From an uncultured Candidatus Rokubacteria bacterium (lineage in GTDB: Bacteria > Methylomirabilota > Methylomirabilia > Rokubacteriales > CSP1-6), in the NCBI GenBank assembly GCA_963771355.1, contig CAVYTA010000006.1, forward strand, positions 2,016,001 to 2,080,000: a DNA stretch of 64,000 bases, read 5' to 3'. Shown in pieces: positions 24,852 through 25,521 of this stretch. The notes below the pieces were generated by a model, which saw nothing but the letters and a program-made list of their open reading frames with translations, searched no databases and was not told the DNA's origin. Position numbers and translations under genes: made by a program. Numbering within the stretch: the stretch's first letter is position 1; the number at the start of each line of letters is the position of its first letter.

Positions 24852-25406
24852 ATGTCCGTGACCCTCCGGGAGAAGGCGCAGGTCCTCGACGAGACCGCGC
24901 TGGACCGGGCGCTCACCCGCATCGCCCACGAGATCGTCGAGCAGGCGGGCGGGGTGGAAGACATCGCCCTGGTCGGCATCAAGACCCGCGGGGTCACCCT
25001 CGGCGCCCGGATCGCGGCCAAGATCGCGGCCATCGAGGGCCGGAGCCCGTCGGTGGGCGCGCTCGACATCACGCTTTACCGGGACGATCTGCGCCTCAAG
25101 GCCGAGCAGCCGAGGGTGCGCGGGACCGAGATCCCCTTCCCCATCAAGGGACGCACGGTGGTCCTGGTGGACGACGTGCTCTTCACCGGCCGCACCATAC
25201 GGGCCGCGATGGACGCCCTCATGGATCTCGGCCGGCCCCACATCATCCGGCTGGCGGTGCTGGTGGACCGGGGCCACCGTGAGCTACCGATACGCCCGGA
25301 CTATGTCGGCAAGAACCTCCCGACGAGCCGCCGGGAAACCGTGGCGGTGATGCTGCGCGAGCACGATGGCGTCGACCGCGTCGTGATCCAGGAACCCACC
25401 GAATGA
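24852..25406 (+). CDS. pyrR: Bifunctional pyr operon regulator/UPRTase PyrR
   Basis: [44 protein letters not shown]. Confidence 0.97.
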
Positions 25407-25521
25407 TGAGCACAGCCGAAGGGACCGAGCGGAAACGATGCTTCGGCGGAGCACGGGCGGCGGAGCCGAAGGCGAGCCGAGCGGAAACGAACAATTCACC
25501 CGAGCGGAGCGAGGGCTAGCG
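25403..25521 (+). repeat. Dispersed intergenic repeat, copy 1 (encodes a 38-aa bridging ORF, 25403-25519)
   Basis: Shares AGCCGAAGGCGAGCCGAGCGGA (22/22) and CCGAGCGGAGCGAGG (15/15) with 44328-44377 on the minus strand. Confidence 0.8.

Follow-up and report, generated by a model that had tools for sequence, protein, structure and literature searches.

The window analysed here is a 64,000-nucleotide stretch of contig CAVYTA010000006.1 from an uncultured Candidatus Rokubacteria bacterium, whose genome is named G000 below; G002 and G003 are relatives, and L and X numbers designate compared loci and sequencing runs, respectively. In this window, the junction between pyrR and pyrB holds two repeat units and a small bridging ORF, all on the + strand:

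24852..25406, + strand: pyrR, the upstream gene (NCBIfam NF003549 over cut-off); its TGA at 25404-25406 overlaps the ATG of the bridging ORF
25403..25519, + strand: bridging ORF of 38 aa, with entries at -4 and -1 and an exit at +2; no NCBIfam family
25407..25460, + strand: degenerate 5' repeat unit of copy 1, showing 7 small gaps (18 nt in all) against the G003 units, possibly a consensus error
25461..25515, + strand: 3' repeat unit of copy 1 (nhmmer E=1.5e-7; covariation), covered by contigs from 25464 on
25465-25473 and 25499-25515, + strand: within the 3' unit, the hairpin A core GCC-GAA-GGC and, after an AT-rich spacer, hairpin B (CCC GA GC GGA GC GA GGG)
25511..25521, + strand: GAGG plus 7 nt, including the TAG at 25517-25519; these letters likely formed the end of pyrR and the ribosome-binding site of pyrB before the insertion
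25522..26448, + strand: pyrB, the downstream gene (NCBIfam NF002032 and TIGR00670 over cut-off); homologs start here

The original prediction, made from the letters of the window, described this junction as an intergenic repeat acting as a translational-coupling cassette. As it stated, the ATG of the 38-aa ORF overlaps the pyrR TGA (ATGA), and 2 nt separate its TAG from the pyrB ATG at 25522. Copy 1 shares exact blocks of 22 nt (25464-25485 versus 44377-44356) and 15 nt (25500-25514 versus 44342-44328) with a second copy, GAGG lies 7 nt before the start codon in both, and 14 nt are duplicated inside copy 1 (25425/25477). With regard to the GCC-GAA-GGC mini-hairpins announced for copy 1, the one in the 3' unit is perfect, whereas the first is degenerate. 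A second ATG, at 25406, overlaps the pyrR stop by 1 nt (TGATG, one codon on from ATGA), and the 16S anti-SD CCTCC is present in G000. An upstream pyrB start at 25438 was rejected: the frame is open, but the codon is devoid of overlap and of SD, and homologs start at 25522. Right before the pyrR start (window 24700-24851), a hairpin followed by a T-run resembles a pyrimidine attenuator, and the G003 ortholog of this region gave a weak Rfam PyrR match (E=0.039, below gathering).

The pyrR-pyrB locus is polymorphic among strains. Contigs from 8 runs leave approximately 25412-25456 uncovered, though near-identical strains are present on both sides, which is a hole in the contigs and no proof of an assembly error. 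In the same runs, three other forms of the junction occur in strains whose flanks are identical to the window, namely, an empty one (X2, X13), an intact unit starting from the same ATGA (X7, X13), and a unit beginning 10 nt past a TAA (X1, X14), the contig joints of the last two having 23-25 letters on the short side. The exact 38-aa peptide of copy 1 may therefore reflect strain-specific decay or a consensus error of the assembly; if the intact allele comprises one unit, this frame would nevertheless run on to that TAG.

Comparison of the pyrR-pyrB junction, obtained from 29 of 30 loci, sheds light on its history. In five genus relatives, the frame of the element forms a C-terminal PyrR tail ending with SEG-stop 2-3 nt before pyrB. 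In G000 and G003, a TGA overlapping an ATG detaches this tail, and the G003 junction carries a five-unit array with relays at -4, -1 and +2, while G002 is empty. It had been proposed that the element brings its own SD; in three more distant relatives lacking an insert (L015, L018 and L022), however, pyrR terminates with GAGGGCTAG, which makes both the TAG and the SD-like GAGG likely older than the element. The simplest reading of these alignments is that insertion took place just before the old pyrR stop, at a GAGGGC microhomology, and the 38-aa ORF would then be a detached PyrR tail.

Copy 2 lies on the opposite strand of the window, each copy being in sense orientation with respect to its own operon:

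44329..44423, - strand: copy 2 (nhmmer E=1.2e-14), made up of a short unit followed or preceded by a full one and flanked by an ABC ATPase gene and a permease gene (Pfam)
44394..44438, - strand: relay ORF 1 of 14 aa, whose ATG overlaps the upstream TGA (-4)
44317..44394, - strand: relay ORF 2 of 25 aa, starting at TAGTG (-1); its GTGA end overlaps the permease start GTG at 44320 (-4)

This copy is a cleaner example of a relay than copy 1. The GTG at 44320 is supported by an ATG at the matching place in G003, where the orthologous locus (L093) keeps the relay by a different route. The permease gene starting there has one extra base compared with G003 at about 44134, which splits it into frames 43796-44320 and 43504-44130 and is likely an assembly error.

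A profile search of the whole genome retrieved 67 units in 41 G000 loci at E<=0.1, against 1 match in the reversed genome, and thereby extended the two window copies to the multi-copy family that had been anticipated. A full unit consists of hairpin A, the AT-rich spacer, and hairpin B, measures approximately 57-64 nt, and is often found in tandem. All 41 clusters are single-strand arrays, and 33 are located outside called genes; copies also occur in frame inside proteins or as terminal extensions. The flanking genes, named from Pfam, are ordinary operon genes such as nuoC-nuoD, ruvC-ruvA, mutL-miaA, and ABC permeases. Among close strains, filled, empty and copy-number alleles are observed, the number of tandem copies being variable. 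Block A is present in 81 of the 151 genomes of the family (Rokubacteria/Methylomirabilota), including all 8 of the genus, and block B exceeds its control by far in genera g1 and g17 only. The exact two-block pattern was found in 101 stretches of the GTDB collection; the 80 titles listed among them are mostly Rokubacteria/Methylomirabilota, with some under other names. Viral contigs gave no match to the element, plasmids and phages gave matches at chance level only, and an Rfam search returned nothing on it.

The orientation of the repeat was assessed against gene frames from a self-trained dicodon model built for this analysis. Among the 41 G000 loci, 29 are in sense orientation to both flanks, 5 are antisense to both, 6 are mixed, and 1 is undetermined. 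The predicted sense orientation is thus borne out (29 versus 5 co-oriented loci, p=4e-5, a value overstated, as are those given below for the relay, by the relatedness of loci and units). A similar distribution appears in 101 loci from other genomes (73 sense, 8 antisense, 6 mixed, and 14 undetermined), which include orthologs, the 142 loci forming 106 junction groups. At 17 of the 33 C5 and C6 loci, the hairpin strand has the sequence of the leading strand, with replichores inferred from GC skew. This indicates that the bias follows transcription, not replication, and targeting of the lagging-strand template as in IS200/IS605-type elements was rejected. None of the 24 loci of C6 falls in its first 960 kb (G000:C6:1-960000), around the GC-skew maximum at approximately 781 kb (naive p=3e-5).

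To what extent translation crosses the element was evaluated at 73 distinct co-oriented junctions. At 10 of them the element lies in frame inside one ORF, and at 63 it separates two ORFs; in 13 of the latter the frame of the upstream gene continues into the element, and in 50 it ends before it. A strict relay, defined as a chain of -4/-1 overlaps only that reaches the downstream frame, exists at 26 of these 50 junctions, via small ORFs at 20 and directly at 6, where the element constitutes an N-terminal extension. Strict relays were obtained in 45 of 158 controls with a 1-nt indel in the hairpin (binomial p=4e-4 for the observed number against this rate), at a frequency of 0.29 in shuffled elements, and in 72 of 603 element-free gaps. 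In addition, 31 of the 50 junctions have a start codon overlapping the upstream stop, compared with 164 of the 603 element-free gaps. The contrast becomes smaller once exits from 0 to +3 are counted as well (28 of 50 against 0.40 for the indel and 0.35 for the shuffle controls), reverse-complemented elements relay at 23 of 63 junctions versus 33 of 63 observed, and copy 1, which exits at +2 and not by overlap, counts against the relay. A bridging ORF at every copy, as first proposed, is not found, 24 of the 50 junctions being devoid of a strict relay. Likewise, the SD spacing is not fixed: where the relay start lies past the element (23 loci), the terminal GAGG is 0-18 nt away in 14 and 31-124 nt away in 9, and the 7-nt spacing occurs in only 2.

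Frame dependence is also apparent within the repeat. The AT-rich spacer holds TRATG/ATGA stop-restarts, and whether a unit has one goes with its length modulo 3. When distinct tandem units measuring 55-66 nt were compared, an in-frame stop with an overlapping restart was found in 10 of 12 units with a length of 2 modulo 3, but in 3 of 32 with a length of 0 modulo 3, the 9 units of 1 modulo 3 being mixed. This internal stop/restart is the -1 correction that a relay needs in units of the 2-modulo-3 class, and the five-unit pyrR-pyrB array of G003 makes use of it. Furthermore, filled orthologs of empty G000 junctions relay in 10 of 11 cases if the empty junction is an overlap, against 6 of 15 otherwise (p=0.014), two of these 15 non-overlapping junctions holding degenerate remnants. 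The suggested preference for insertion at stop/start overlaps did not reach significance, since overlaps make up 11 of 26 empty junctions and 767 of 2492 junctions in the background (31%; p=0.21), and this absence of enrichment fits filtering after insertion better than strict targeting. Taken together, these sequence statistics indicate that ribosomes are likely relayed across the element.

One may object that bridging ORFs are a mere by-product of a T-poor repeat in a genome of 70% GC, orientation alone being selected and coupling not, for instance if the C-rich antisense strand loads Rho. T indeed accounts for 283 of 3675 bases on the element strand and the conserved arms are almost T-free, hence stop-free in every frame; besides, the nulls already yield relays in about 29% of cases and nearly half of the loci are without a strict one. 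However, the 1-nt indel control preserves composition and yet lowers relays from 52% to 28%, and neither the modulo-3 rule nor the 10/11 versus 6/15 contrast is expected without frame selection, so that we regard this explanation as very improbable. With regard to Rho, polarity at untranslated gaps and a coupling optimum from -4 to +3 are described in PMC12548453, and a rho gene over its cut-off is present in G000 (on C6), together with a second, shorter rho-like match at G000:C4:101854-102705 (model positions 132-412). Contigs from the RNA runs X15 and X17 are too sparse to show transcription of the element.

The peptide itself appears to be of little account. Several frames of the element are in use, including an antisense one inside ctaA, and the variable loop base gives K, Q, E or stop in the main frame, which points to conservation of a DNA shape rather than of a peptide. 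The ctaA gene (G000:C6:2012013-2012981, L229) has two in-frame copies, one in sense orientation in an internal loop and the other antisense, forming the C-terminus; both sites are present in G003, and the facing pair is 420 bp apart.

Two conserved patterns define the arms, GC GA GXC GCA GCC GNA GGC GA GYC GA GC for hairpin A and SC GA GC GNA GC GA GS' for hairpin B. When the loop of hairpin A was left free, it read GNA in all 49 G000 matches and in 141 of the 150 matches listed for three relatives, 22 further matches existing beyond these. The X/Y pair is CG at 93 loci, GC at 36, GA/AG at 9, and GG/CC at 3 (GG 2, CC 1). In hairpin B, for which 110 of 111 distinct sequences were aligned, 17 of the 110 show a two-sided change of the S pair and 29 show one of the next pair, while 5 have standard pairs in place of GA·GA. 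For two covarying pairs all four combinations occur, and the covariation score was reached by 0 of 500 shuffles in either hairpin, slid controls being lower; the two alignments (A1 and A2) were chosen by patterns fixing some stem bases, so that invariant pairs are uninformative. The G·A and G·T pairs are workable on the coding strand only. This covariation shows two strand-specific coding-strand hairpins with GNA triloops and tandem G·A pairs, predicted to be of the single-stranded-DNA type. According to PMC13037366, GCGNAGC is an extra-stable DNA mini-hairpin with a sheared G·A pair, the related RNA hairpins being much weaker. Both Rokubacteria loops match this motif, with N free and G/A fixed; the examples described there (N4 vRNAP promoter, phage G4 origin) occur singly, as recognition sites of phage or plasmid DNA, whereas the present hairpins belong to a dispersed chromosomal repeat and have added tandem G·A pairs.

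The hairpins might instead act as RNA, through mRNA stabilisation, processing or ribosome pausing, with spread via an RNA intermediate or gene conversion. This would directly explain an orientation that follows transcription, and the outer stem of hairpin B includes G·U-type pairs; tandem G·A pairs also form in RNA. Against it, triloops on a stem of 2-3 bp are a DNA motif (PMC13037366), standard RNA folding of copy 1 is no better than that of shuffles (z=0.06), Rfam has no match to the element, and no reverse transcriptase is found among 74 flanking proteins, which makes a role as RNA unlikely. On the antisense strand, a c(UNCG)g RNA tetraloop was discarded on inspection, only one closing pair being available in hairpin A and none in B.

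With regard to insertion sites, the predicted empty sites do exist in relatives, and L034 and L038 display a clean ATGA on both sides of the insert. Clean duplications are limited to these 2 loci; with flanks 72-95% identical, most other ends are ragged. The sequence to the left of the element is variable, most often TTGATT or ATGATT, and (A/T)TGATT is also seen at unrelated loci. The RAYT/HUH transposase expected to be linked was not found, no PF01797 gene being present in G000 or in 7 genus relatives. A RAYT/IS200 Y1 gene is carried by 29 of the 151 family genomes, and no element at E<=0.1 lies near any of 30 Y1 loci examined out of 34 places. Most of these loci resemble by eye the HTH-tailed subclass 2.1, for which PMC6006769 reports no nearby REPs; Y1/HUH proteins of about 290 aa with a C-terminal HTH-like tail (L140-L159) are common in genera g47, g17 and g5, and none has the element in its vicinity. 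IS91-like Y2 searches gave 2 matches in G000 and no element at 8 examined of 14 places (best E 0.53). At E<=1e-8, the 74 flanking proteins (5 without family; one flanking gene left out) include no transposase or integrase either.

These data bear on the view that the repeat is a REP-type element, moved by RAYT/HUH, which is directed to stop/start overlaps and carries with it a designed bridging ORF and a fixed-spacing SD. Like REP/REPIN/BIME sequences (PMC8266576 and PMC6006769), the repeat is short, multi-copy, mostly intergenic and expanded in certain lineages, with strand-specific hairpins that recall REP recognition; its conserved loop G parallels a group 3 REP, in which the first G of the 3-nt loop is essential (PMC8266576). 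The ATGA duplications and the recurrent (A/T)TGATT left end speak for the same view. However, the repeat has neither the constant GTAG 5' of the hairpin nor a linked tnpA-REP, its units are direct tandems and almost never inverted BIME/REPIN-like pairs, its sense bias is strong, and it is translated only in prediction; the variable SD spacing and non-significant overlap preference add to these objections, and we consider such an element distinctly unlikely. From the non-autonomous REP-like family first proposed, the multi-copy nature, the patchy distribution and the apparent lack of autonomy stand, but the REP/RAYT linkage does not. A MITE is not a better match, as the ends are ragged and non-inverted, with neither terminal inverted repeats nor a constant target duplication.

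The closest counterpart is the mycobacterial MIRU, and the claim of an undescribed system has to be given up to this extent, the same logic having been described in 1997 for MIRUs (Supply et al. 1997, as summarised in PMC12548453, PMC3184786 and PMC5056196). In these sources, MIRUs insert at start codons with a -4-coupled ORF (PMC12548453), measure 40-100 bp in 40-50 copies with tetranucleotide repeats and internal inverted repeats (PMC3184786), and occur in one orientation with small ORFs, tandem variation and no obvious palindromes (PMC5056196). Both families comprise 40-100-bp units at about 40 loci per genome, mainly intergenic in operons and in one orientation to transcription, with small ORFs overlapping flanking stops or starts (-4), tandem copy-number variation, and a tetranucleotide duplication at some filled sites, without a known transposase. 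The Rokubacteria repeat, from a different phylum, is likened to MIRUs by mode of action and not by descent. It differs by its two hairpins, covarying and non-canonical where MIRUs are described as lacking obvious palindromes (PMC5056196), by an in-unit stop/restart that corrects the frame, by relays of up to 4 small ORFs, and by its frequent presence as an in-frame protein tail. In M. intracellulare, a repeat found genome-wide and printed as primer 3 in PMC10117815 reads CA GA GC GAA GC GA TG. It shares the 11-nt GA-GC-GAA-GC-GA core of hairpin B and has its own closing pairs, CA/TG. The primer 3 repeat is presumably part of the MIRU unit, an identification that the paper itself does not make. 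No description of the repeat in Rokubacteria was found in a literature search that stopped short of most subscription papers. The concept is therefore known from MIRUs, and what is new is the internal frame-correcting relay and the hidden DNA-type hairpins.

We thus favour, as the probable explanation, a sense-oriented, tandem-variable repeat likely working like a mycobacterial MIRU. Copies would persist where ribosomes are relayed across operon junctions via overlapping stops and starts, or where they read the copies as in-frame protein tails. A filter acting locus by locus would keep coupling, most copies that leave 60-300 nt untranslated in a Rho-encoding genome, or that lie antisense, being lost; it would act on a unit already shaped by it, the peptide itself presumably having no function. 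Arrays would grow and shrink by slippage or unequal recombination. New sites would be reached via single-stranded coding-strand DNA, whose hairpins would be read by a putative unlinked strand-transfer enzyme, with insertion at gene ends, at NTGA or GAGGGC-type microhomology. This mode of spread is the least certain step, conceivable but open to considerable doubt.

MIRUs have been used for strain typing for decades, while their spread and ORF coupling rest on the 1997 inference. The present independent family from an uncultured soil phylum lends it quantitative support through the relay excess over frame-shifted controls, the length-modulo-3 rule, and the coupling kept where it pre-existed. 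The hairpins represent a candidate recognition structure, missed by standard folding and partly common to the mycobacterial repeat, which makes mobility testable. More speculatively, and with the balance leaning clearly against it, the two families could form one unrecognised cross-phylum class of non-autonomous elements, whose hallmark would be a hidden single-stranded-DNA hairpin (GNA triloop with tandem sheared G·A pairs) rather than a shared sequence. An unlinked, possibly host-encoded enzyme would read this hairpin on the non-template strand of operons under transcription, and built-in stop/restarts would re-couple translation once an element has inserted or an array has grown. Housekeeping proteins such as PyrR and CtaA gain low-complexity tails and loops from the repeat, which also provides VNTR markers for Rokubacteria.

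In other respects, several observations were made on repeats elsewhere in the genome. One junction (G000:C6:2262957-2266225, L231, compared with L171) carries an antisense array of three units in G000 and, in G002, one unit in sense orientation, the outcome of either independent insertions or an inversion. G000 also contains two more families of dispersed repeats, with cores GGGAGAGCGGGGGCCA (13 places, e.g. C5:650603) and GATGCGAGGCGGCGCC (10 places, e.g. C1:55192); at C5:650540-650668, a member of the GGGAGAGCGGGGGCCA family shares its junction with a -4/-4 bridging ORF. An array of approximately 24-nt tandem repeats with 20 core matches is located at G000:C6:896900-897660. Finally, the DnaE encoded at L213:1-4833 (G000:C6:1001333-1006165) is 1610 aa long and contains an intein as well as a LAGLIDADG domain; the element overlaps the 5' end of its gene.
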